The notes below the pieces were generated by a model. The model was not told the DNA's origin. It saw nothing but the letters and a program-made list of their open reading frames with translations, and searched no databases. Below, in pieces: positions 2,796-27,353 of a DNA stretch of 64,000 nt. The stretch is from an uncultured Candidatus Saccharibacteria bacterium (GTDB taxonomy: Bacteria > Patescibacteriota > Minisyncoccia > Phycocordibacterales > Phycocordibacteraceae), in contig CAYUQB010000001.1 of the NCBI GenBank assembly GCA_964446735.1, positions 380,460-444,459 of the forward strand, read 5' to 3'. Position 1 is the stretch's first letter. Each line of letters opens with the position of its first letter. A program made the translations under genes and the position numbers.

Positions 2796-3995
2796 TTACG
2801 CGGTGATCTTCGTCACGACGCCGGCACCGACGGTCTTACCACCTTCGCGAATAGCGAAGCGGGTGTTGTCCTCAAGCGCGATCGGCGCAGTGAGCTTGAC
2901 CTTGAAGGTAACGGTATCGCCCGGCATGACCATTTCCTTGCCTTCCGGAAGGGTAACCTCGCCGGTGACATCGGTCGTGCGAACGTAGAACTGCGGCTTG
3001 TAGCCAGTGAAGAACGGCGTGTGACGGCCACCCTCATCCTTAGAAAGGATGTACACCTCTGCCTCAAAGTCGGTGTGCGGGGTAACGGTGCCGCTCTTTG
3101 CGAGCACCTGACCACGATGCACATCCTCCTTCTTCGTGCCGCGCAGGAGGATACCAGCGTTGTCGCCAGCCTGACCTTCCTGAAGCTGCTTGTTGAACAT
3201 TTCGATGCCAGTGACGGTCGTCTTGGCCGTCGGCTTAAGACCAACGATTTCGACTTCCTCACCAACCTTCACAATGCCGCGGTCGATGCGGCCCGTAACG
3301 ACGGTGCCACGACCTTCAATCGAGAAGATGTCCTCGATTGCCATGAGGAACGGCTTGTCGGTCTCACGGACTGGGTCCGGGAAGTAGGAGTCCATGGTGT
3401 CCACGAGCTCCTTAACCTTGAGCGCCCACTCGTCTTCAGCGCTGGTCGCCTCAAGCGCCTTAAGACCGGAGCCCTTGATGACGGGAGTGTCCTTATCAAA
3501 GCCCTGCTTGGTGAGAAGGTCACGAATTTCCTCTTCAACGAGGTCTACCATGTCCTTGTCATCCACCATGTCTACCTTGTTGAGGAAGACAATGAGCTTC
3601 GGCACACCCACCTGCTTTGCAAGAAGAATGTGCTCGCGGGTCTGCGGCATTGCGCCGTCAGTTGCGGCGACCACGAGAACTGCGCCGTCCATCTGGGCGG
3701 CACCCGTGATCATGTTCTTGATGTAGTCTGCGTGGCCCGGAGCGTCGATGTGCGCGTAGTGGCGGTTCGGCGTCTCATATTCCGAGTGGTGAAGCGCGAT
3801 GGTAATACCGCGCGCCTTCTCCTCGGGCGCGTTGTCGATGTTTTCGACCTTCTCTGCGCGAGCCTTGTAGCCAGCGCCAGAGTTGAGGTTGAGAACATTC
3901 AGAATGGAAGCCGTGAGCGTGGTCTTACCATGGTCGACGTGACCGATAGTACCTACGTTCATGTGCGGCTTGCTGCGATCGAATGCATCTGCCAT
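2796..3995 (-). CDS. tuf: elongation factor Tu
   Basis: 399 aa, [31 protein letters not shown] motifs. Confidence 0.95.
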
Positions 3996-4204
3996 AGGTT
4001 CGTAAATTACTGGTAGCTAAGTAAGCTGCCGTCCCGCCTGCCTGCGGTTGAAGGCAGGCGACCAAGGCGCTCCGGCGATTCCCCCGCGCAGCGCCTTTCA
4101 GCCGTCCTCCTCCCCTGTGGTCGGATAACATCGAAAAGAGCGCCGTACTCGCGTTAGGTGTAAAGGTACACGGCACGTTATGAAGCGTCAAGGAAATAAA
4201 AGGT

Positions 4205-4232
4205 CAGCCTCGCCGTTCTACCGGCGAGGCTG
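4205..4232 (-). terminator. hairpin terminator after GC-rich ORF 4259-4852
   Basis: 11-bp stem cagcctcgccg/cggcgaggctg. Confidence 0.5.
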
Positions 4233-4258
4233 GTGCAAAGCACGTAGGACAGGGTGAC

Positions 4259-4852
4259 TTACCCGGCGGCGAAGGCCGGCGTCTTGCCGCGGAAGCCACT
4301 TTTGGGCTTCTCCTCCCCGCGGGCGGCGGCCTTGCGGGCCTTCTTGCCGCACGGGTTCTGCTTGCGAGGCGCGTGACCTGGCTCGAACATCGTTTCGGCG
4401 AGCGGCGGCTCCTCATTGCGCAGGGCCGCCACCAGTTCCGCCTCGATGGTGACCGGGTCGACGACCGGCAGCGGATCGACGCATGGCTTGGGCTCGGCTG
4501 ACCACTGGAGTTGCCGCGGCCCGAAGAGCGCGGTCAGCTCGGCGTTCGGGAAGACCAGGCCGCTGGTGGCGACGAAGTGGCGGATCATGCCCATCGTGGC
4601 GCGGTCGCCCAGGTCGTAGAGGACCTGGTAGGCGCGGTCGAGCGGCTCGGGCTCGCTGAAGGTCCAGCCGTTGCCGACGCGGACCATGATGACGACGAAG
4701 GCGTGCTCTTTCTCAAAGAGCCGGCCGGCCTCGAGCATCTGCCACAGCGTGGCTTCGTCGTAGACGGGCTGCTTGAAGCGCGAGATCAGGTAGCCGACGC
4801 CGAATTCGGACTTCGGCTTGGTGTAGCTGCTGGCATCCGGAATCTTGGACAT
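4259..4852 (-). CDS. hypothetical protein (GC-rich cassette between tuf and fusA) with basic C-terminal tail
   Basis: 197-aa ORF, locally elevated GC, C-terminus APRKQNPCGKKARKAAARGEEKPKSGFRGK; no family recognised. Confidence 0.45.
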   Translation of the reverse strand: MSKIPDASSYTKPKSEFGVGYLISRFKQPVYDEATLWQMLEAGRLFEKEHAFVVIMVRVGNGWTFSEPEPLDRAYQVLYDLGDRATMGMIRHFVATSGLVFPNAELTALFGPRQLQWSAEPKPCVDPLPVVDPVTIEAELVAALRNEEPPLAETMFEPGHAPRKQNPCGKKARKAAARGEEKPKSGFRGKTPAFAAG

Positions 4853-4962
4853 GCTTTCCCTTTCGCTGTCCGTACTGGTTGATGAAAAGACGCCAGAGGC
4901 GCCGACTAACTGAACATTAGAGTAATAGAATTATTGAAAAAGTCAATGGGTTGGGGTCTTTC

Positions 4963-5409
4963 CTAGTGATGCCCACCGCCATGCCCACCGTGTGCCTCAG
5001 CCTTTTTTTGACCGCCGCCGCCGCCTCCTTCTCCTCGTATGGATTCAACCGCCCCCTTAAGAAGACCGCCCCCAATCGTCTTAACTCCTATGTGCCACCC
5101 CCAAAACCAGAGGAATCCAAAGAATCCTCCCACTCCTCCATGACCATGGCCGCCCTCATGATGTGCGGAGGCATGGTTGCCACTCGAGATTGGTGCACCT
5201 ACCGATATTCTGCCCGGAGCTGTAGCACTAGTCCGAGCAAGGTTCGCTTTGGTCTGTTCAATGGCTTGAGCGTTCTCTCCGGTTGCGGGGGGCGTCTGTG
5301 CATGTGCTTCGGCAGCTTGTGCCTCGGCTTCTACTGCGGCCTCATGATCTTCTTGAGTCTCTGGCACCTTGGGAGTTCGTTCAGGTCCAGCGGGAGGGTT
5401 TTCTGACAT
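4963..5409 (-). CDS. hypothetical His/Gly-rich low-complexity protein
   Basis: 148 aa with HHEGGHGHGGVGGFFGFLWFWGWHIGV and GGGGGGQKKAEAHGGHGGGHH; an alternative ORF on the opposite strand (4951-5406) is also open, so the strand is uncertain. Confidence 0.3.
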   Translation of the reverse strand: MSENPPAGPERTPKVPETQEDHEAAVEAEAQAAEAHAQTPPATGENAQAIEQTKANLARTSATAPGRISVGAPISSGNHASAHHEGGHGHGGVGGFFGFLWFWGWHIGVKTIGGGLLKGAVESIRGEGGGGGGQKKAEAHGGHGGGHH

Positions 5410-5444
5410 GTCTCAAGCTTAGCATCTCTCCCTAAAACGCAAGA

Positions 5445-5462
5445 AACCGCCTGTGGGCGGTT
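5445..5462 (-). terminator. terminator after fusA
   Basis: aaccgcc-tgtg-ggcggtt hairpin, then a U-rich run on the minus strand. Confidence 0.5.
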
Positions 5463-5484
5463 CCGTGCTGCACGCTCTGATCCT

Positions 5485-7632
5485 TTATTTCCTCGATGCA
5501 ATGATGTCTTGCGCAACGTTTTGAGGGACTACTTCGTAGTGATCGAACTCCATGGTCATTGAACCGCGACCTTCAGTCATGGAACGGAGGCTTGTGGTGT
5601 AGCCGAACATTTCTGAGAGCGGAACCTTCGCATGCACCGCCTTGTTCATACCGCGATCTTCCATTCCTTCGATGGCGCCGCGCTTTCCGGAAAGGTTGCC
5701 TGTGATATCACCCATGAACTGCTCGGGGATAACCACTTCGACATTCATGATTGGTTCGAGTATGACCGGCTTAGCTTTGTGTGCCGCTTCCTGGAAGGCC
5801 TGACTTGCTGCAATCTTGAACGCAATTTCAGATGAGTCGACTTCGTGGAAAGAACCATCGTAGAGGTCGACCGATACATCCACCATTGGGTAGCCGGCAA
5901 GCACGCCGCGTCCCATAGCTTCGCGAATACCCTTTTCGATCGGGTTGATGTATTCCGTCGGGATGACACCACCCTTGATGTTGTTGATGAACTCAAAGTG
6001 GTCCTCACGGGTAACGTTCTTGGGAATCTTGGCATCTTCTGCAAGCGGCTCGAGGTGCTTCACCTTGATCTTCACGTGGCCGTACTGACCCTTACCACCC
6101 GTCTGCTTGATGTACTTGTTCTCGACATCGGCGGCGCCAAGAATTGTCTCGCGGTATGCCACCTGTGGCTTACCCACATTCGCTTCCACGTTGAACTCTC
6201 GCTTCATGCGATCCACGAGGATCTCCAGATGGAGCTCACCCATACCTGCCATGATGGTCTCGCCGGTCTCCTCATCCGAAGAAATCTTGAAGGTTGGGTC
6301 CTCGTCCGAAAGCTTACGAAGTGCCATACCCATCTTTTCCTGGTCGGCCTTAGTCTTCGGCTCGATGCGAAGAGAAACCACTGGCTCAGGGAACTTAATC
6401 TCCTCAAGGAGGATCGGATTCGCTTCGTCGCAGAGCGTGTGCGACGTCTTAGTGTCCTTAAGACCTACCATTGCCGCAATCTCACCCGTGAAGACGGTCT
6501 CGACTTCCTCACGCTTATCCGCCTGGAGTCGCACGATGCGACCGACACGCTCTTTGTTACCGGTGTTGGCATTGTAGACATACGAGCCGGCAGAGACGGT
6601 ACCGGAATACACACGGAAGAAGGTAAGCGCACCAACGAAGGGATCGGTCTGAAGTTTGAATGCAAGTGCCGTGAACGGCTCCTTGTCGTCTGCCGTACGC
6701 TCTACTTCTTCACCAGTCTTGGGGTTCGTTCCCTTTACCGGAGGGAGATCAAGCGGACTGGGGAGATAGTCGACAACCGCATCAAGTACGAGCTGTACGC
6801 CCTTGTTCTTCAAGGCTGAACCGGTGTAGACCGGGAAGATTTCATTTGCGATCACCGCCTTGCGGAGGGTCTTCTTCAGATCCTCGACGGAAGGTTCGTT
6901 ACCCTCGAAGTATGCATTCATCTGCGCCTCGTCATGTTCGACAATGCGCTCAATGAGCTCGGCGCGGTACTTCTGTGCCTCAGCTTTGTACTGTTCCGGT
7001 ACTTCGCCCTCGGTGACTTCTTCGCCCATATTGCCGCTGAAGGTGTAGGCCTTCATGGACAGGAGATCGATGACACCCTCAAAATCGTTCTCAGCACCCA
7101 TAGGGAGCTGCGCACGCACGGCCTTCTTCGACAGGCGGTCGAGGATCGACTTATAGGAGTCTTCGAACGATGCGCCCGTGCGATCCAATTTATTGATGAA
7201 ACAGACGCGTGGCACATTGGCTTCGTCTGCATAGCGCCAGTTGGTTTCCGACTGTGGCTCTACTCCTGCCACACCGTCAAACACCACAATCGCACCATCC
7301 AAAACGCGCATCGAGCGCTTCACTTCTGCGGTGAAGTCGATGTGTCCTGGGGTATCGATGATGTTGAAACGAAACTTCTTCGACGTATCCTTCTTATCCG
7401 GTTCGCTGGTTTTGCTCCAGAAGCAGGTGATGGCAGCAGCGGTGATGGTGATACCGCGCTCACGCTCCTGCTCCATCCAGTCGGTGGTCGTCTGGCCCTC
7501 ATGCACCTCGCCGATTTTATGCTGGGAGCCCGTGTAGAAGAGCACACGCTCGGACGTGGTCGTTTTACCTGCGTCGACGTGGGCGACGATGCCGAAGTTG
7601 CGCACTTTTTCCAGGGGATAATCGCGATTCAT
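5485..7632 (-). CDS. fusA: elongation factor G
   Basis: 715 aa, [28 protein letters not shown]. Confidence 0.95.
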
Positions 7633-7770: not shown

Positions 7771-7977
7771 CTAGAGGCCGTGCGCCCTGCCGCCGCCGCG
7801 CGAGGCCTCGCCGCCCTTCTTGCCGGCGCTGGCCGCGAGGTCGCGGTCCTTCGCGAAGGACCGCTTTTCGCCGGGGACGGCCGCGCCGCCCTTCCTCGCG
7901 ATCTCGCGCCTGCGCTCAGGGTTCATTGCGGCGAAACCGCGCCTGGCGCGGGGCTTTCCGGTGGTGTCGGTCGGCAT
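7771..7977 (-). CDS. KGG-repeat stress-induced protein (YciG-like)
   Basis: RGFAAMNPERRREIARKGGAAVPGEK...SAGKKGGEASRGGG matches the KGG motif GFASMDPEKQREIASKGG; GC-rich. Confidence 0.55.
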   Translation of the reverse strand: MPTDTTGKPRARRGFAAMNPERRREIARKGGAAVPGEKRSFAKDRDLAASAGKKGGEASRGGGRAHGL

Positions 7978-8699: not shown

Positions 8700-9164
8700 T
8701 TACCAAGCAAAGTGGGCGAACGCTTTGTTCGCATCGGCCATGCGGTGCATGTCCTCCTTTTTCTTGATTGCTTCGCCCTCGTTCTTGGCGGCCATGAGGA
8801 TCTCGTTGGCAAGCTTCTCGGCCATAGGCTTTCCCTTCTTGGCACGGGCGGCGTTGATGAGCCAACGGTACGCGAGAGAAACGCGGCGCTGCTGGGGAAC
8901 CTCGCGCGGGACCTGGTAGTTAGCACCACCAACACGGCGTGAGCGGACTTCCATCAATGGCGAGACGTTACGAATGGCGGTCTCGAAGGTTTCGAGCGGA
9001 TCCTGTTCATTCTTCTTGATGATCTCAAGTGCGTCGTAGACGACTTTGCGTGCCGTGTCCTTCTTTCCATCCCACATAACGGTATTGATGAAGCGAGAAA
9101 TCGCATCGGACTGGTAGACGAGGTCGGGACGGCGAACCGGCTTGTTTTTGATAGGACGGCGCAT
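8700..9164 (-). CDS. rpsG: 30S ribosomal protein S7
   Basis: [35 protein letters not shown]. Confidence 0.9.
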
Positions 9165-9169
9165 AGGGA

Positions 9170-9577
9170 TTACTTAGGCTTCTTAGCTCCGTAGCGCGAG
9201 CGGCCACGACGACGCTTATCAATACCGGCGGTATCAAGCTTGCCGCGGACGATGGTGTACTGGACACCAATGTCCTTCACGCGACCGCCGCGAAGCAGCA
9301 CCACTGAGTGCTCCTGGAGGTTGTGGCCCTCACCCGGAATGTAGGCGGTCACTTCCATACCGTTAGAAAGGCGTACACGAGCAATCTTGCGGATTGCGGA
9401 GTTTGGCTTACGAGGGGTCTTCGTGGTGACCTTCACGCACACACCGCGCTTAAAGGGTGCCGGGTAGTATTCCGGACGATTCTTGAGCGCGTTGAAGCCA
9501 CGCGAAAGAGCCGCAGTCCGGTCTTTGCGTGTCCGGTCCTTGCGGGACTTCTTCGTGAGCTGATTGATGGTGGCCAT
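9170..9577 (-). CDS. rpsL: 30S ribosomal protein S12
   Basis: [16 protein letters not shown]...[37 protein letters not shown]. Confidence 0.95.
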
Positions 9578-9695: not shown

Positions 9696-10940
9696 TTGTA
9701 CTCGACAATTCAACCTGCACATCGGGAGCACACGATGGATATCGCATCCGTTCAAACCGTTACCCTGCCCGATGGCAGGAAAGTGAACGTATCCGCCACC
9801 GAAGAGCCGTGGTGGAGTATGGACGACACGTCCGGCTACGTCGACCCGCACACCATAGCCGCAGATCCGGACCAGCCACGACGCTTCATGAAAGCGACCG
9901 ATCTGGAGGAGCTGGAGGAAAGCGTACGGGAATGTGGCGTCAGACAACACATCGTCGTCACTCCCCGACATCTGGCCCCGTGGGCTCGGGTCCTCCCCGA
10001 GGAAGAGCACTGCTTCTTCCTCAACGTGAGCGGACACCGCCGAAAGAAGTGCGCGGTCAAGTCCGGTCAACGCGCGGTTCCGATCCACATCCGGGTTTAC
10101 GCTGACCAAGATGCGCACGAACGCGATCGTTCGGTCCTGAATGCCGCGCACTCGGAGCTCACTGCCCTTGAAGAAGGGTGGGAGATGCTCAATCACCGCG
10201 AGCGTGGCTGGAAGATCGAGAAGATTGCGCGCACCTTCGGCAAGTCCGTGCCGGAAGTCTACCGGCGCATCAACCTGACGAGGCTTCATCCAGAGATCCA
10301 GGCGCTCTTGTCGCCCGAGCTTGAGGAGAAGAAGCGATTGTCGGTGGTGGTGGGCTCGGCGCTCGGCGGGCTCAAGGAACCGACGCGGGAGGAACTTCTC
10401 GACCTGTACCGGAAATTCGGCGAGGGCCTGCCCGGCTTCGAGCACCTGGCTGACCTCGATGAAGAAGAGGAGGACTTCGAGGAAGAATCGGACTCGAACG
10501 ACCGGGCCGCAGCCGACGTGCGCCGGTTTACCGCCCAGAAGCTTCTGTTGGCGTACACGGCCAGCAAGTACATGAGCGGAGTGCGCGCTGCAGCCTTCAT
10601 CAAGGACGAGTCGCACCACCTCGAAGCTTCTCGCGGACATTCCGGAGCGGGCCGACCGGTCACTCGGTTCGAGCCCCGCAAGCGCAAAGAGGTCATCAAG
10701 GGACTCGTGAAGCTTGTCACCGGTTCGCCGGTGATGGACTGGAACCCACGGGAGCTTGAGCGCATTTTCGATCTTTCCTCCCGCGAGGAGATCGAAGAAG
10801 TGATCGGGCAGCTCAAGAGCGTCACCGGATTCCTCGAGGGTCTCATCACGGTCCTCGAGCGACTCCGTGATCGTAAGCAGCCCATGCGTCCAGAAACACG
10901 CCGCATTATGGAGCAGCGAGCGCGGGCGGCGGGCGGCTGA
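9696..10940 (+). CDS. ParB/Srx-like nuclease-domain protein with HTH (atypical GHRR box)
   Basis: DPDQPRRFMKATDLEELEESVRECGVRQHIVV...FFLNVSGHRRKKCAVKSGQRAVPIHI resembles the ParB N-terminal box (GERRxRA becomes GHRRKKCA); GWKIEKIARTFGKSVPEVYRRINLTRL is a ParB-type HTH; acidic stretch LDEEEEDFEEESD; GC-rich; the antisense ORF 9450-10640 is judged spurious. Confidence 0.6.
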   Translation: MYSTIQPAHREHTMDIASVQTVTLPDGRKVNVSATEEPWWSMDDTSGYVDPHTIAADPDQPRRFMKATDLEELEESVRECGVRQHIVVTPRHLAPWARVLPEEEHCFFLNVSGHRRKKCAVKSGQRAVPIHIRVYADQDAHERDRSVLNAAHSELTALEEGWEMLNHRERGWKIEKIARTFGKSVPEVYRRINLTRLHPEIQALLSPELEEKKRLSVVVGSALGGLKEPTREELLDLYRKFGEGLPGFEHLADLDEEEEDFEEESDSNDRAAADVRRFTAQKLLLAYTASKYMSGVRAAAFIKDESHHLEASRGHSGAGRPVTRFEPRKRKEVIKGLVKLVTGSPVMDWNPRELERIFDLSSREEIEEVIGQLKSVTGFLEGLITVLERLRDRKQPMRPETRRIMEQRARAAGG

Positions 10941-23360: not shown

Positions 23361-24575
23361 CTAGATTTTCGACGACAGAGAGTAAATCGGACTGATCATC
23401 GCGAGTGCAAAGATACCTACCGCCACACCGATTACGAGCATGAGTATCGGCTCAATGATGGTGGAGAGATCTTTGGTACGGTCTTCAACATCCGTCTCGT
23501 AGTACTCCGCTACCTGCCCAAGCATGTCAGCAACTTTTCCGGTTTCCTCACCCACCGCGATCATATCGGCCATAAAGAAGGGATAGAGTTTCCCGTGTTC
23601 AGAGAAGGGAGCCGAGAGCGGGTCGCCCTTCTTCACGCGCTCACTCGCATCACTGACCACCCGACCGAATATGTTATCTCCCACAACCTCGGCAGCGATA
23701 TCGATGGCAGTGACCATTTCAACGCCAGAAGAGAGCAGTGAGGAAAGGGAACGTGCGGCACGAGCGGCAAATGTTTCGCGAACGAGTTCCCCAATGACTG
23801 GTATGCGGAGCGATACCGCAAGAATGATGCGATGCCCGAACCGTGAGTGCGAGAATATGAAGATCCCGCCAAATACCAGAATGAGCGCGAGAAATACGAG
23901 CCCGACGTTTTGTGCCATGAAGTCGGAACTGGCAATGATGATCCGAGTTGCAGTCGGAAGCGCAACCCCGAGCGATTTGAAGGTTGCTGAAAGAGTCGGC
24001 ACGACGTAGATCATCATCAGTACGGCGATGACCACAATGGCCGAAAGAATGATCCCTGGATAAATCATCGCGCCCCGAATCTTCTTCTCGAGTGTGAAGG
24101 AACGGTCCATCTGGCGTGCGACCACCCGAAGCGATTCAGCGAGCTTCCCCGATTCTTCGCCGGCCTTGGTCATCGAAATGAAGAGTCGCGAGAAGATATT
24201 TCGATGCTCAGCAAGGGCCTCATGAAATGCCATACCTTCTTTGATACGCTCTTCAAGCGATCCGACGATTTCTTTTAATCGTCTGTTACGCGTCTGCCGC
24301 GCAATGACCGAGAGTGCTCGAGAAAGCGTGAGGCCCGCCGAGAGCATGGCGGCAAGGTTTTTGGTAAAGGTGATGCGTTCCTCGGTCTTAACACCACTGC
24401 CAATCGTAATGTTCGCAATCTTCGAGATCGAAATGCCACCACCTCCCTCTTCAATGGCAAGGACTCGTCCTCCTTCTTTCTCTATATCTCCGTAAATAGT
24501 GAAGCGCGATGGCGCTTCCATAACGCGCGTCTCTTCTCCACCGTCTTCGCGTTTCATCTTCACGCGGTATTTCAT
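23361..24575 (-). CDS. pilC: type IV pilus assembly platform protein PilC (GspF family)
   Basis: 404 aa; two GspF repeats each with 3 TM segments; MAFHEALAEHRNIFSRLFISM...GEESGKL. Confidence 0.85.
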   Translation of the reverse strand: MKYRVKMKREDGGEETRVMEAPSRFTIYGDIEKEGGRVLAIEEGGGGISISKIANITIGSGVKTEERITFTKNLAAMLSAGLTLSRALSVIARQTRNRRLKEIVGSLEERIKEGMAFHEALAEHRNIFSRLFISMTKAGEESGKLAESLRVVARQMDRSFTLEKKIRGAMIYPGIILSAIVVIAVLMMIYVVPTLSATFKSLGVALPTATRIIIASSDFMAQNVGLVFLALILVFGGIFIFSHSRFGHRIILAVSLRIPVIGELVRETFAARAARSLSSLLSSGVEMVTAIDIAAEVVGDNIFGRVVSDASERVKKGDPLSAPFSEHGKLYPFFMADMIAVGEETGKVADMLGQVAEYYETDVEDRTKDLSTIIEPILMLVIGVAVGIFALAMISPIYSLSSKI

Positions 24576-24658: not shown

Positions 24659-24997
24659 CTAGCGCGCGCGAGCGCGCGAGCCGCCGAACAAGGGGGCGAA
24701 GAGGCCTCCGAGGTAGCTCGCGACGACGCCTAGAGCGAACGCAGCGCTGATGTCGTACCCGTCCTCATAGGCGAGGACATTGCGGCACAGCACCGCGCCG
24801 ATGACGCCCAGAAGGACGAAGACGCCTGATGCGAGCAGGCCCTCCGCCCTGATCTTCTGCGCGAGCCAGGTCCAGACGAGGCCCGCTCCCATGATGCCGA
24901 TGGCCCAGGGGATGAAGCCGCCGTCCACCACTGGTAGGCCAAGGGCGGTGCCGGCGAGCACCACTCCGAGTATGGCGGTTAAAACGAACTTGGACAT
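24659..24997 (-). CDS. small GC-rich membrane protein inserted between pilC and pilB
   Basis: 112 aa, 3-4 predicted TM helices, Gly/Ala/Leu-rich; own terminator. Confidence 0.45.
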   Translation of the reverse strand: MSKFVLTAILGVVLAGTALGLPVVDGGFIPWAIGIMGAGLVWTWLAQKIRAEGLLASGVFVLLGVIGAVLCRNVLAYEDGYDISAAFALGVVASYLGGLFAPLFGGSRARAR

Positions 24998-25086: not shown

Positions 25087-26841
25087 TTAGCCGTCGTTCA
25101 CTGCGCGAAGCACTTCCTCAACCGAAGTGATGCCCCGTGCTGCTTTGTAAATTCCGTCTTCAAGCATAGTGAGCATGCCTTCTTTGCGTGCCTGCGCTTC
25201 AATGGCGTCGGGGGATGCACTATGCAGCACGAGATCACGAATGGTAGGTGATACGGTCAGAATCTCATGAATGCCAATGCGGCTCTTGTAGCCATCCTCG
25301 CATTCAGCTGAAGGTTTCGGATGGTAAAACGGGAGCGTATCGAGCTTGGTGCCTTCCTTCACCAACTTCTCCTCTTTAAGGGAGGTAAACGCCGCTTCGA
25401 ACTTATCCGCGGTCGCCACTTTATCACGCGCTTGTTGGTCGAGCGTGTACTCTTCTTTGTCATCGCACAGACGACGCACGAGCCGCTGTCCCACGACGAG
25501 TCTGAGCGTGGAGACGAGGAGGAAGGGTTCCACTCCCATGTCCATGAGACGAGGGATGGCACCAGCAGCCGAGTTGGTGTGAATCGTCGAAAGCACGATG
25601 TGACCAGTGAGCGCCGCATTGATCGCAAGCGATGCCGTTTCGCTATCGCGGATCTCACCCACCATGATGATGTTTGGGTCCTGACGCAGCAGTGCGCGCA
25701 GGCCTGCCGCAAAGGTCATACCAATTTGTGGGTTCACCTGCGTTTGGTTGACCCGTTTCATTTGGTATTCAATTGGATCCTCGATGGTGGAAATGTTTAC
25801 GTCCGGCGTATTGAGAATATCGAGAATGGTATAGAGCGTTGTCGTCTTGCCGGAACCGGTCGGACCCGATACCAAAATGATGCCGGTCGTCTGTTTCGTC
25901 GCCATATGAATCCGCTCCAGGGTTTCTCCGTGGAACCCGAGCGCTTCAAGAGTGAAGCCTTCGCCCGTCTCGCGCAGAAGGCGCATCACGATCTTCTCGC
26001 CGTAGTAGGTCGGAAGAAGAGAAACACGGAAGGAAACCTTCTCACCATCGGTCTCCATTTTGAAGCGACCGTCCTGCGGGAGACGCTTCTCATCGAGCTT
26101 TAGGTTCGAGAGCACTTTGATACGTGCGGTGATACCAGGTCCTGCATTCTTCGGAAGCGTCATCGCGTCGTGGAGCATACCGTCAATTCGGTATCGCACG
26201 AGCGTCGCCTCTTCCATGGGCTCAATGTGAATGTCAGACGCGTCCTGAATGATTGCATGACGCAGCAATGTGTCCACGATACGAACGATTGGGAGATCTT
26301 CCGCCATCTTCTTGAGGTCTTCACCCGACGCATCCTCACCGATGGCTTCTTTCACTAAATTAATGCGCCCAGCTTCGGTGGTGATAAGATCGCCGAATTC
26401 TTCTTTGAGAGACTTCTGATATTGCAGGAGGGCGTGCTTGAGCGACTCATCATCCGTAAGTCGGGGCTGAATATTAAAGCCAGTCTTTTTACGTACCGAG
26501 TCGATTGCGGGCAGATCCTGTGTATCGAGCATTGCTACTTCCAGATCGGAACCATCCTTACGAAAGGCGACGATGCTGTGAGTGCGCGCAATAGGCTCTG
26601 GAATAAGTGAAAGCACTTCAAGCGGGATCTTCTTGTCCTTCAGATTCACGAACGGAATGCCAAGAACGTACGCCTTAATGCGACGGAGCGCATCTTGGGT
26701 AAGCGCGCCTTGCGACACGAGAATGTCGCCGATTGATTGCTGACGTTCTTTCGCTTCTGTGTCAGCCGCTTCAACATCTTTGCGCGGCACGAGACCAGAA
26801 TCGAGAATGAACGACTTCAACTCGCTTTCAGAAACTTGCAT
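25087..26841 (-). CDS. pilB: type IV pilus assembly ATPase PilB (GspE family)
   Basis: Walker A LVSGPTGSGKTTTL, Asp box, His box IRDSETASLAINAALTGH; start taken at MQVSESELKSFILD. Confidence 0.9.
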   Translation of the reverse strand: MQVSESELKSFILDSGLVPRKDVEAADTEAKERQQSIGDILVSQGALTQDALRRIKAYVLGIPFVNLKDKKIPLEVLSLIPEPIARTHSIVAFRKDGSDLEVAMLDTQDLPAIDSVRKKTGFNIQPRLTDDESLKHALLQYQKSLKEEFGDLITTEAGRINLVKEAIGEDASGEDLKKMAEDLPIVRIVDTLLRHAIIQDASDIHIEPMEEATLVRYRIDGMLHDAMTLPKNAGPGITARIKVLSNLKLDEKRLPQDGRFKMETDGEKVSFRVSLLPTYYGEKIVMRLLRETGEGFTLEALGFHGETLERIHMATKQTTGIILVSGPTGSGKTTTLYTILDILNTPDVNISTIEDPIEYQMKRVNQTQVNPQIGMTFAAGLRALLRQDPNIIMVGEIRDSETASLAINAALTGHIVLSTIHTNSAAGAIPRLMDMGVEPFLLVSTLRLVVGQRLVRRLCDDKEEYTLDQQARDKVATADKFEAAFTSLKEEKLVKEGTKLDTLPFYHPKPSAECEDGYKSRIGIHEILTVSPTIRDLVLHSASPDAIEAQARKEGMLTMLEDGIYKAARGITSVEEVLRAVNDG

Positions 26842-27353
26842 ATCTATACCAAAAGTATAGCGCGTAACGTGTAACACGCTTGCGATAAAAAGAATAATTG
26901 TGAATCGGAACCCTAGGTTCGCTCTGGTTTCGTTCCAGCAATTTCCAATCGAAAAGTTTTATTGATCCGTGAAACTCGAGCAAGTGCAGAATGTCTCTTC
27001 TGGGTGTCGGCTACTGTATGAAATTGAATAACTTTTTAGCGATGCGCCCAACTACTTGGGGGGAGAACTTACTATCGACTCCTACATTCCGCTACGCGTG
27101 AAATTATTCTTGCTTCAATAATTAATATGAGCGTGAAAGATCTCTTTATACCAGCAGGGATATCGGACTCGTATTAATTTCAAATGGAAGCAGCATGAAA
27201 CGTTTATACACTCAGGACGCGAAGATAAGTTCCGCTCCATCTTGTCTGGATTGACGCCATACCTATATATGGTATCCTTCCGCTATCTGAGATGTCCGCA
27301 CCCGCGGGCATTTCTCTTTAAAAAGGTGCGACAACTGAATAACGCATGGGCTT

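Follow-up and report, generated by a model that had tools for sequence, protein, structure and literature searches.

The subject of this analysis is a window of 64,000 nucleotides from an uncultured Candidatus Saccharibacteria bacterium (contig CAYUQB010000001.1, positions 380,460 to 444,459), and in particular the interval in it that separates the genes for the elongation factors EF-G and EF-Tu. The list of open reading frames (ORFs) places fusA (EF-G, 715 amino acids) at 5485..7632 and tuf (EF-Tu, 399 amino acids) at 2796..3995. Both genes are on the minus strand, and they form the upstream and downstream boundaries of an interval of 1,489 bp (3996-5484). The interval holds two further ORFs on the same strand, which are called ORF148 (148 amino acids, 4963..5409) and ORF197 (197 amino acids, 4259..4852) here. 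Both had been placed correctly in a preliminary description of this DNA, which put the guanine plus cytosine (GC) content of tuf at about 52%; the measured value is 57.7%. The GC content of fusA is 54.1% and the mean of 39 reference genes in the window is 53.3 +/- 2.5%. The fusA gene is 65-94% identical to the fusA genes of relatives in the Patescibacteria.

The fusA-tuf spacer in related genomes

In most bacteria fusA and tuf are adjacent, including fusA and tufA in the Gammaproteobacteria (PMC6735719), and the preliminary description had taken this adjacency as its point of reference. We compared the locus with 80 species-representative genomes that were retrieved with the C-terminal 204 residues of EF-G, the best of which are 88-92% identical. 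Nearly all of these genomes carry labels of the Patescibacteria, or candidate phyla radiation (CPR), and include Kaiserbacteria, Paceibacteria, Parcubacteria and related groups. The source of the window is itself Kaiserbacteria-like, a member of the Patescibacteria. Gap statistics were taken from 74 loci with both fusA and tuf, 50 from genomes and 24 from metagenomes. The gap ranges from 110 to 5,726 bp (median 1,314 bp), and is 200 bp or less in just four of these loci. The adjacency of fusA and tuf thus fails in this clade. The interval in the window is ordinary, since its length is close to this median, and it is typical for the Kaiserbacteria-like clade of Patescibacteria.

Other spacers of the translation-gene cluster behave in different ways. 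The tuf-rpsJ spacer has a median of 102 bp and exceeds 500 bp in one of 39 loci. The rpsG-fusA spacer (median 413 bp) exceeds 500 bp in 26 of 61 loci, and the rpsJ-rplC spacer (median 219 bp) in 13 of 31. The cluster is not compact in these organisms: expansion is frequent in its fusA-tuf, rpsG-fusA and rpsJ-rplC spacers, and the tuf-rpsJ spacer is tight.

The fusA-tuf spacer is hypervariable, and its content differs even between close relatives. A tblastn search with ORF148 and ORF197 found no match in the loci of the 80 genomes and in 35 metagenome loci of relatives, including those with an EF-Tu that is 96-98% identical. The two genes are restricted to a narrow lineage and are not core genes at this position. 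Among the cargo of the spacer in relatives are type IV pilin-like, DcrB/PsbP-like and NAD-binding proteins, a nucleotidyltransferase, a phosphoribosyltransferase that has pyrimidine genes beside it, and many small orphans. Nucleotidyltransferase/HEPN-like ORFs and small ORFs that resemble toxin-antitoxin (TA) genes are found in the spacer of other relatives.

Type IV pilin-like genes recur in the fusA-tuf spacers of L086, L088, L095, L100 and L113 (such handles denote contigs and loci of relatives), and there are two copies in L088 and L100. They were recognised by the N-terminal methylation motif FTLIELLVVIAII, and matches to the Pfam families N_methyl and T2SSG were confirmed for L086 and L088.

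ORF148 and ORF197 are also distributed separately. L005 has a gene of the ORF148 type and no homologue of ORF197. L001 and L083 have the ORF197 type only in the sequence that is available, which in the case of L083 is a fragment of 791 bp. The two genes are independent because each occurs without the other in relatives, and this rules out a two-gene module.

Coding status of the two ORFs

Contig L119 carries a near-identical variant of ORF197 and comes from another sequencing run (SRR8426593), its identity to the window is 97.9% over 4112-7059. The substitutions between the two sequences were classified as synonymous or non-synonymous for each gene and in the alternative frames. In fusA there are 26 synonymous and no non-synonymous substitutions, a ratio of non-synonymous to synonymous rates (dN/dS) of 0. 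ORF148 has 11 synonymous and three non-synonymous substitutions (dN/dS 0.084; binomial P = 3.6e-5). L119 also has one in-frame deletion of 12 nt, which costs it one HGGG unit of a tandem repeat in ORF148. In ORF197 six substitutions are synonymous and four non-synonymous (dN/dS 0.20; P = 0.016, from small counts). All four non-synonymous changes fall at residues 125-154, a predicted disordered linker beyond the N-terminal domain, and residues 1-124 have three synonymous changes and no non-synonymous ones.

Read in alternative frames the same substitutions give dN/dS values of 1.5-1.9 (1.55-1.68 in the shifted frames of ORF197), or no synonymous changes at all, as in frame +2 of ORF148. The codon log-likelihood of the ORF148 region peaks in the proposed frame. 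An antisense ORF on the plus strand (4951-5406) was ruled out, it has a negative codon score and a dN/dS of 1.87. ORF148 and ORF197 are genuine protein-coding genes under purifying selection, because the synonymous excess relative to L119 is specific to their frames. A second contig, L002 (SRR12113420), is 100% identical over the entire interval. L002 and L119 come from separate sequencing runs and carry the same junctions, so a chimera of the assembly is unlikely.

ORF148 has escaped gene callers. Its exact sequence is missing from a collection of 15 billion proteins and it is not called as a gene on L002, a Logan contig.

Transcription signals in the interval

A consensus scan of the coding strand found terminator-like hairpins at 5443-5464 (after fusA), 4889-4903 and 4205-4232 (after ORF197). 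The first of these belongs to a putative terminator on the minus strand (5433..5464), in which the stem-loop is followed by the tail TTGCGTTTTA. At the matching position L005 has GGCCCCGG-ATAT-CCGGGGCC and then GTTTTT.

A promoter-like element precedes ORF148 on the minus strand (5416..5442). It consists of TTGCGT (5437-5442), a spacer of 15 nt and TAAGCT (5416-5421), with the ATG 6 nt further on, and its -35-like box overlaps the tail of the fusA terminator. The orthologue in L005 is preceded by TTGCAT-15-TAAGCT-8-ATG, past a fusA terminator of its own. The ORF148 mRNA is probably leaderless or near-leaderless, as the distance of only 6 nt from the -10-like box to the ATG (8 nt in L005) suggests.

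For ORF197 an alignment with the upstream region of its homologue in L001 points to a promoter-like element and 5' untranslated region (UTR) at 4853..4946 on the minus strand. The element comprises TTGACT (4941-4946), a -10-like box that is either TACTCT (4919-4924) or TCTAAT (4916-4921), and the hairpin at 4889-4903. Further along the 5' UTR are the conserved sequence TCATCAACCAGTAC (4872-4885) and a Shine-Dalgarno (SD)-like AAGGGA (4855-4860). The homologue in L001 is preceded by TTGACT-17-TATAAT (11/12 matches), a hairpin, TCATCAATCAGTAC and AAAGGAG. In L083 the upstream sequence includes TTGACA-17-TATTAT and GAGGAG, the latter 7 nt before an in-frame GTG. Downstream of ORF197 lies a hairpin that resembles an intrinsic terminator (4195..4232, minus strand), its stem of 11 bp (4205-4232) includes nine G-C pairs, its inverted repeat is 100% complementary and a T-tract follows. 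This agrees with the terminator that had been assigned to the gene in the preliminary description.

The last of these elements belongs to tuf and is found at 4163..4191 on the minus strand. TTGACG (4186-4191) and TACCTT (4163-4168) are separated by 17 nt, and among 37 unique tuf upstream regions of relatives TTGAC is invariant and a TAnnTT box is conserved. The terminator-like hairpins and the separate promoter-like elements suggest that the interval is a spacer between transcription units. It had been proposed that both ORFs are co-expressed at high level with the translation factors inside the str operon; the hairpins and the conserved promoter-like boxes before ORF148, ORF197 and tuf speak against this, and co-transcription of the two ORFs with the elongation factor genes is not indicated.

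The structured tuf leader and its conservation

The tuf gene appears to have a 5' leader of about 165 nt (3993..4159, minus strand) with a conserved structure and compensatory changes. From 5' to 3' the leader comprises a 5' strand that does not vary (UAACGCGAGUACGGCGCUCUUU), the long hairpin P2 with its variable sequence, and the hairpins P3 (AAGGCGCU...AGCGCCUU) and P4 (CGCCUGCCU...AGGCAGGCG), and it ends in a conserved stretch before the AUG that has no Shine-Dalgarno motif. P2 folds in 35 of the 35 sequences tested. Three base pairs of P3 show covariation, and after this hairpin comes UUGG or UUUU. The layout looks attenuator-like because the 5' strand of the leader could form an alternative pairing in which the 5' arm of P3 is its partner. 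The leader is a candidate cis-regulator of tuf-rpsJ.

The leader is conserved with L001, L004, L005, L006 and L009. A scan with a gapped pattern of 26 bases from the leader added 35 metagenome loci. In 33 of these the sequence past the leader is present, and tuf is directly downstream in every one. A covariance model (R1) matches 42 loci at 40-151 bits, together with one marginal match in L021. In a plain MAFFT alignment 82% of cells are paired, compared to 38-50% in slid controls, and there are 80 compensatory cells vs 34 +/- 6 in shuffles. The alignment fitted to the model, which leans to the structure it was built on, has 84% of cells paired vs 40-51% in slid controls and 132 compensatory cells vs 49 +/- 6 (reached in 0 of 500 shuffles). 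The collecting pattern fixes 26 bases, and the invariant strands are for this reason uninformative. The leader has no match in Rfam at the gathering thresholds and no relevant match at E <= 5, and it is seen only in close relatives (the 42 loci).

The nearest analogues of this leader are the S10 leader of Escherichia coli, where attenuation is mediated by L4, and the autoregulated tufB. Autoregulation of tufB involves Rho-dependent termination, according to the account of Brandis et al. 2016 that is given in PMC6735719. The leader described here is similar to these systems in that it is a conserved structured 5' UTR before tuf-rpsJ in which P3 is followed by U-rich sequence, but it matches neither in sequence and has no counterpart in Rfam. 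In Patescibacteria it is a candidate for a regulator of EF-Tu and S10-cluster expression, and one that can be tested.

ORF197 and its family

The ORF197 protein consists of a helical N-terminal domain (residues ~19-109), an acidic and proline-rich linker (125-158) and a basic tail rich in lysine and arginine (159-197). The tail had been noted before and is borne out by the composition of the last 39 residues, which include 11 lysines or arginines and have an isoelectric point (pI) of 11.1. In the AlphaFold model, which has a mean predicted local distance difference test (pLDDT) score of 54 and reaches 70-82 over residues 31-80, an all-helical core (19-109) is followed by disorder. A Foldseek search with this weak model (pLDDT 54) found nothing significant in PDB or BFVD, and a sequence profile search of PDB gave nothing below E = 1.

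Homologues were sought in a word index of 5.8 billion proteins and by an exhaustive phmmer search of 1.84 billion representatives. The searches found a strain variant (P0005, at least 90% identical) and two divergent homologues, P0002 (~40-45% identity) and P0003 (33% over residues 33-126). No further homologues were found in JGI metagenomes, IMG/VR or the phage (INPHARED) and plasmid (PLSDB) sets. The genes for P0002 and P0003 are both directly downstream of a patescibacterial fusA, and that for P0002 is also immediately upstream of the tuf leader. The members have an N-terminal domain of ~110 residues in common, and their disordered tails abound in K, R, A and P. Its motifs are LW..L, E.AF, R.GNG..F.EPEP..R, LGD and LF.P. 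The in-frame GTG start in L083 restores the family N-terminus M-x-K-I.

No match to ORF148, to ORF197 or to their homologues was found in Pfam, NCBIfam, PHROG or PADLOC, as one would expect from the earlier statement that neither ORF belongs to a recognised family. The combination of a helical domain, an acidic and proline-rich linker and a basic tail suggests that ORF197 is most likely a nucleic-acid- or ribosome-binding accessory protein, a prediction that we hold with low confidence. The mycobacterial HupB/Hlp proteins and chlamydial Hc1 have basic tails rich in Lys, Ala and Pro and are associated with the nucleoid or the ribosome. ORF197 and its homologues resemble them in having a disordered K/R/A/P-rich end, with a pI of 11 over the last 39 residues in ORF197. 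They differ in that ORF197 has no HU or H1 domain and no match in sequence or fold, and its tail is short and poorly conserved.

Small GC-rich ORFs are also present in the fusA-tuf spacers of L090, L091, L114 and L115. These encode 128-239 amino acids and have a GC content of 62-66%, compared to 51-63% at the adjoining end of fusA. Those of L091 and L114 have K/A/P-rich tails. Several such spacer ORFs, like the ORF197 homologues, end in -AA (QAIAA, LQAA, LKAA, PLAA), which recalls C-terminal degrons of the ssrA type. The ORFs of L090, L091 and L114 form a group of related sequences, for which no relationship to ORF197 was detected, and a distant link to it was rejected (hhalign probability 0.85%).

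ORF148, a protein rich in histidine and glycine

The ORF148 protein begins with an acidic half that is rich in Ala, Glu and Pro. This is followed by a His/Gly segment, an aromatic and glycine-rich helix (residues 94-124) and a C-terminal tail of HGG and HGGG units that ends in GGGHH. The protein includes 31 glycines and 12 histidines, mainly at residues 76-148, and an aromatic patch (GGFFGFLWFWGWHIGV) at residues 93-108. Most of the protein is disordered. The AlphaFold model has a pLDDT of 52, and only the helix at 94-124, which covers the aromatic and glycine-rich patch, is moderately confident. The predicted helix carries K, E and R. No transmembrane segment was detected, the maximum Kyte-Doolittle mean over 19 residues being 1.01 (residues 91-109) compared to a threshold of ~1.6, and 1.34 in the L005 orthologue.

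Part of the tail is encoded by a tandem repeat of 12 nt, ATGCCCACCG plus 2 nt, at 4969-4990, which codes for HGGG units. The length of the His/Gly tail changes by in-frame slippage of 12 nt, L119 being shorter by exactly one unit.

A search with the single sequence found no homologues of ORF148, and a profile search returned just the L005 protein from which the profile had been built. The sole detectable orthologue is an ORF of 189 amino acids in L005 (718-1287), directly after fusA, which was detected only by blastp without composition correction. It matches ORF148 in its N-terminus (M-x-E-x-P-P), acidic disordered first half, His/Gly segment, aromatic/Gly helix and GGGHH end. This orthologue, the codon score and the dN/dS value all identify ORF148 as coding. 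The gene has a native composition, and its codon adaptation index of 0.45 is under the genome average.

Hpn consists of ~47% histidine, with poly-His runs and pairs of cysteines, and HypB carries a GTPase domain. The preliminary description had compared ORF148 with the histidine-rich stretches of these proteins and had pointed to a patch of Phe and Trp. The His/Gly enrichment and the aromatic patch are present, and ORF148 is similar in being small, enriched in histidine and a plausible metal-binding protein. The poly-His runs are not: histidine makes up 8% of the protein (14% of its C-terminal half) and sits in HGG/HGGG units, the longest run is HH, there are no cysteines, and Pfam and NCBIfam give no GTPase domain. 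The features that define Hpn and HypB are thus missing, and the analogy with them is a loose one. The octarepeats of the prion protein have HGGG(W) units that bind Cu(II). ORF148 is like them in having repeated HGGG units beside Trp-rich sequence and a copy number that varies in steps of 12 nt. It is unlike them in that there is no sequence homology and just two to five units, located at the extreme C-terminus, with metal binding that is putative. With low confidence, we predict that ORF148 is most likely a small metal-ion-binding (Cu, Ni or Zn) or stress-type protein that is peripherally associated with the membrane.

Composition and origin of ORF197

The GC content of ORF197 is 67.3%, close to the ~65% given in the preliminary description, and far from the mean of the 39 reference genes. 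Its GC content at third codon positions (GC3) is 0.90, vs 0.56 +/- 0.07 (maximum 0.73) in the same genes, and this compositional analysis upholds the view that the gene is atypical. C occupies 54% of its third positions and G 37%, while T (4%) and A (5%) together account for 9%, compared to 32% in the genes of the str and S10 clusters. ORF197 avoids GGT, CGT, CTT, GTT and GCA, all of which are used by the str/S10 genes, and CTG makes up 53% of its leucine codons vs 11% in those genes.

Selection for high expression is unlikely to be the main cause of the high GC3, as ORF197 shuns the T-ending codons (GGT, CGT, CTT, GTT) that the str/S10 genes favour. Its codon adaptation index relative to those genes is 0.74. 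Because the gene nearly lacks the A/T-ending codons that they use, this value would reflect a common preference for C-ending codons and not a native pattern of adaptation.

ORF197 is also set apart by its SD-like motif. Such a motif is present within 20 nt of the start in five of 42 genes of the window, the reference start codons being uncurated. ORF197 has one and fusA, tuf, rpsJ, rpsG, rpsL and rplC do not. In relatives the homologue in L001 has a GC3 of 0.76 vs 0.69 in the adjacent fusA, and that in L083 has a GC3 of 0.82, with only 75 nt of fusA available there. The composition of ORF197 and its SD-like motif suggest that it was probably acquired horizontally.

A second gene with such a signature lies in the rpsG-fusA spacer. 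KGG68 (7771-7977, minus strand) encodes a general stress protein of the KGG/YciG type with 68 amino acids, which matches the Pfam family KGG (PF10685) with E = 5e-11. It has a GC content of 75%, a GC3 of 0.93 and an SD-like motif. Its 90%-identity cluster includes a YciG protein of Phenylobacterium, and by eye the two sequences are ~90% identical. KGG68 looks like a gene that is shared with GC-rich Alphaproteobacteria. The similarity to this YciG protein indicates that genes which also occur in GC-rich bacteria can be present in these spacers. KGG68 is small, disordered and of a stress type, and resembles ORF197 in its GC3-rich, foreign-like signature. ORF148 and ORF197 differ from KGG/YciG proteins, they have no KGG motifs and no family match. 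Homologues of KGG68 that are 63-71% identical are present between rpsG and fusA in L003 and L004, and another is found in L107.

The spacer as a probable site of gene turnover

We consider it probable that the fusA-tuf interval is a spacer between transcription units and a hot spot of turnover, which in this genome holds two unrelated and independently distributed genes that are restricted to close relatives. One transcription unit would end at fusA, the other would begin with the promoter and leader of tuf and seems to extend into rpsJ. ORF148 and ORF197 would each form a transcription unit of its own between these. ORF197 has the features of a self-contained cassette, with a putative promoter, a 5' UTR hairpin, an SD-like motif, the coding sequence and a putative terminator. 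It was probably gained horizontally and afterwards either retained or traded between relatives, by homologous recombination in the conserved fusA and tuf flanks. The spacer would be such a hot spot in the Kaiserbacteria-like clade of Patescibacteria.

Several observations count against this interpretation. The dN/dS values are derived from few substitutions, 14 in ORF148 and 10 in ORF197. The terminator-like hairpins are modestly enriched, with five observed vs 2.1 +/- 1.4 in shuffles, a strict scan of 3800-5700 for the sigma-70 consensus gave no promoter, and the promoter-like boxes depend on conservation in one or two orthologues. A donor lineage for ORF197 was not found among 15 billion proteins. 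The structure models are of low confidence (pLDDT 54 for ORF197 and 52 for ORF148). The codon adaptation index of ORF197 is equal to that of fusA, which could mean selection for high expression, and all three divergent members of its family adjoin fusA, which leaves room for a functional link to translation.

The last two of these observations belong to the explanation closest to the preliminary description, in which both ORFs entered the str operon, share its strong transcription with the genes for EF-G and EF-Tu and have roles in translation, such as those of a protein associated with the ribosome or a factor and of a metal chaperone. The family members are immediately downstream of fusA, the index of 0.74 compares to 0.52 +/- 0.05 in other genes, a basic tail would suit binding to rRNA and the terminators may be read through. 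Against this, there are terminator-like hairpins behind both fusA and ORF197, and a conserved promoter and leader belong to tuf itself. The ORFs are absent from about 110 related fusA/tuf loci, the closest relatives among them, and unrelated cargo takes their place in the spacer elsewhere. The index of ORF148 (0.45) is low, and that of ORF197 stems from its avoidance of A/T-ending codons and not from the GGT, CGT and CTT preferences of the str/S10 genes. We regard insertion into the operon as unlikely.

A more elaborate reading would join all of the candidate functions. The spacer would be a dedicated gene-capture site with cargo swapped by recombination in the flanks, the ORF197 family a new lineage-specific protein that keeps its place beside fusA because of an association with the ribosome or elongation factors, ORF148 a new metal-binding protein of the HGGG type translated from a leaderless mRNA, and the leader a new autoregulatory RNA of tuf-S10. 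That all of these hold together is quite unlikely.

It is very unlikely that ORF197, with or without ORF148, is a remnant or cargo of a mobile element, a prophage, or a toxin-antitoxin or defence module beside tuf. The foreign-like composition and cassette structure of ORF197 would fit such an origin, as would the nucleotidyltransferase/HEPN-like and small TA-like ORFs in the spacer of relatives, and an imperfect inverted repeat of 23 nt (83% complementary; 4185-4207 and 5477-5499) brackets the interval. Its arms are native sequence, one being the last codons of fusA and the other the tail of the ORF197 terminator and the -35 region of tuf. As the latter arm is conserved in relatives that lack the ORFs, the repeat was judged to be coincidental and was ruled out as the ends of a mobile element. 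No integrase, transposase or flanking direct repeat was found at the interval. There were no matches in PHROGs, PADLOC, the INPHARED phages, the PLSDB plasmids, IMG/VR or BFVD, and the independent distribution of ORF148 and ORF197 also speaks against a common element.

An artefact, with spurious ORFs or with a GC-rich block that stems from a chimera of the assembly or from contamination, could be argued from ORF148 being uncalled in public collections, from the near-equal codon score of the antisense frame of ORF197 (0.18 vs 0.22 bits per codon) and from the abrupt jump in GC content, but is effectively refuted by the frame-specific purifying selection on both ORFs, by the junctions shared with L002 (100%) and L119 (97.9%) and by the orthologues that L001, L083 and L005 have at this site.

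The turnover reading of the fusA-tuf spacer has a parallel in the insertions into the translation-gene supercluster described by Brandis, Cao and Hughes 2019 (PMC6735719), where extra genes are also found at the boundary between units of the translation machinery with terminator and promoter signals close by. There are two differences from that study (PMC6735719). In the Gammaproteobacteria tufA closes the str operon next to fusA, whereas here the boundary would fall between fusA and tuf, with tuf at the apparent head of the S10 genes. The insertion described there is rare and ancient, whereas the spacer described here turns over at the level of the genus or family.

In themselves the two genes are of modest weight. 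With them the many hypothetical proteins of CPR bacteria grow by two tiny orphan families, and ORF148 is an example of a genuine gene under purifying selection that was overlooked by gene callers. The behaviour of the spacer as a hot spot and the tuf leader are likely to be more useful than the ORFs. A spacer with such fast turnover is a natural place to study the gain and loss of genes in streamlined symbiont genomes, and it is a candidate neutral site for genetic engineering.

Neighbouring regions of the window

The remaining genes of the cluster flank fusA and tuf on the minus strand. According to the ORF list, rpsL is found at 9170-9577 and rpsG at 8700-9164, with a gap of 1.07 kb between rpsG and fusA. 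On the other side rpsJ (2412-2774) starts 21 nt past tuf and is separated from rplC (733-1338) by another gap of 1.07 kb.

The rpsJ-rplC gap contains a fragment of GMP synthase (guaA) with 57 amino acids at 2170-2343 on the minus strand, which corresponds to model positions 197-238 of 512 (E = 1e-11). This fragment looks like the remnant of a pseudogene within the S10 cluster. Beside it, at 1508-1774, is an orphan ORF of 88 amino acids that appears coiled-coil-like.

A ParB-like protein of 414 amino acids (ParB_N, E = 3e-9) is encoded on the plus strand at 9696-10940, divergent from rpsL. Its GC content of 61% and GC3 of 0.74 are moderately atypical.

A second GC-rich island, with a GC content of up to 69%, is present at 24659-24997 on the minus strand, where it encodes a hydrophobic, membrane-like orphan protein of 112 amino acids. 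Judged from their translations, the genes on either side, at 25087-26877 and 23361-24575, would encode a PilB-like ATPase and a PilC-like protein respectively. The same pattern is seen here again, a small GC-rich ORF between conserved neighbours.

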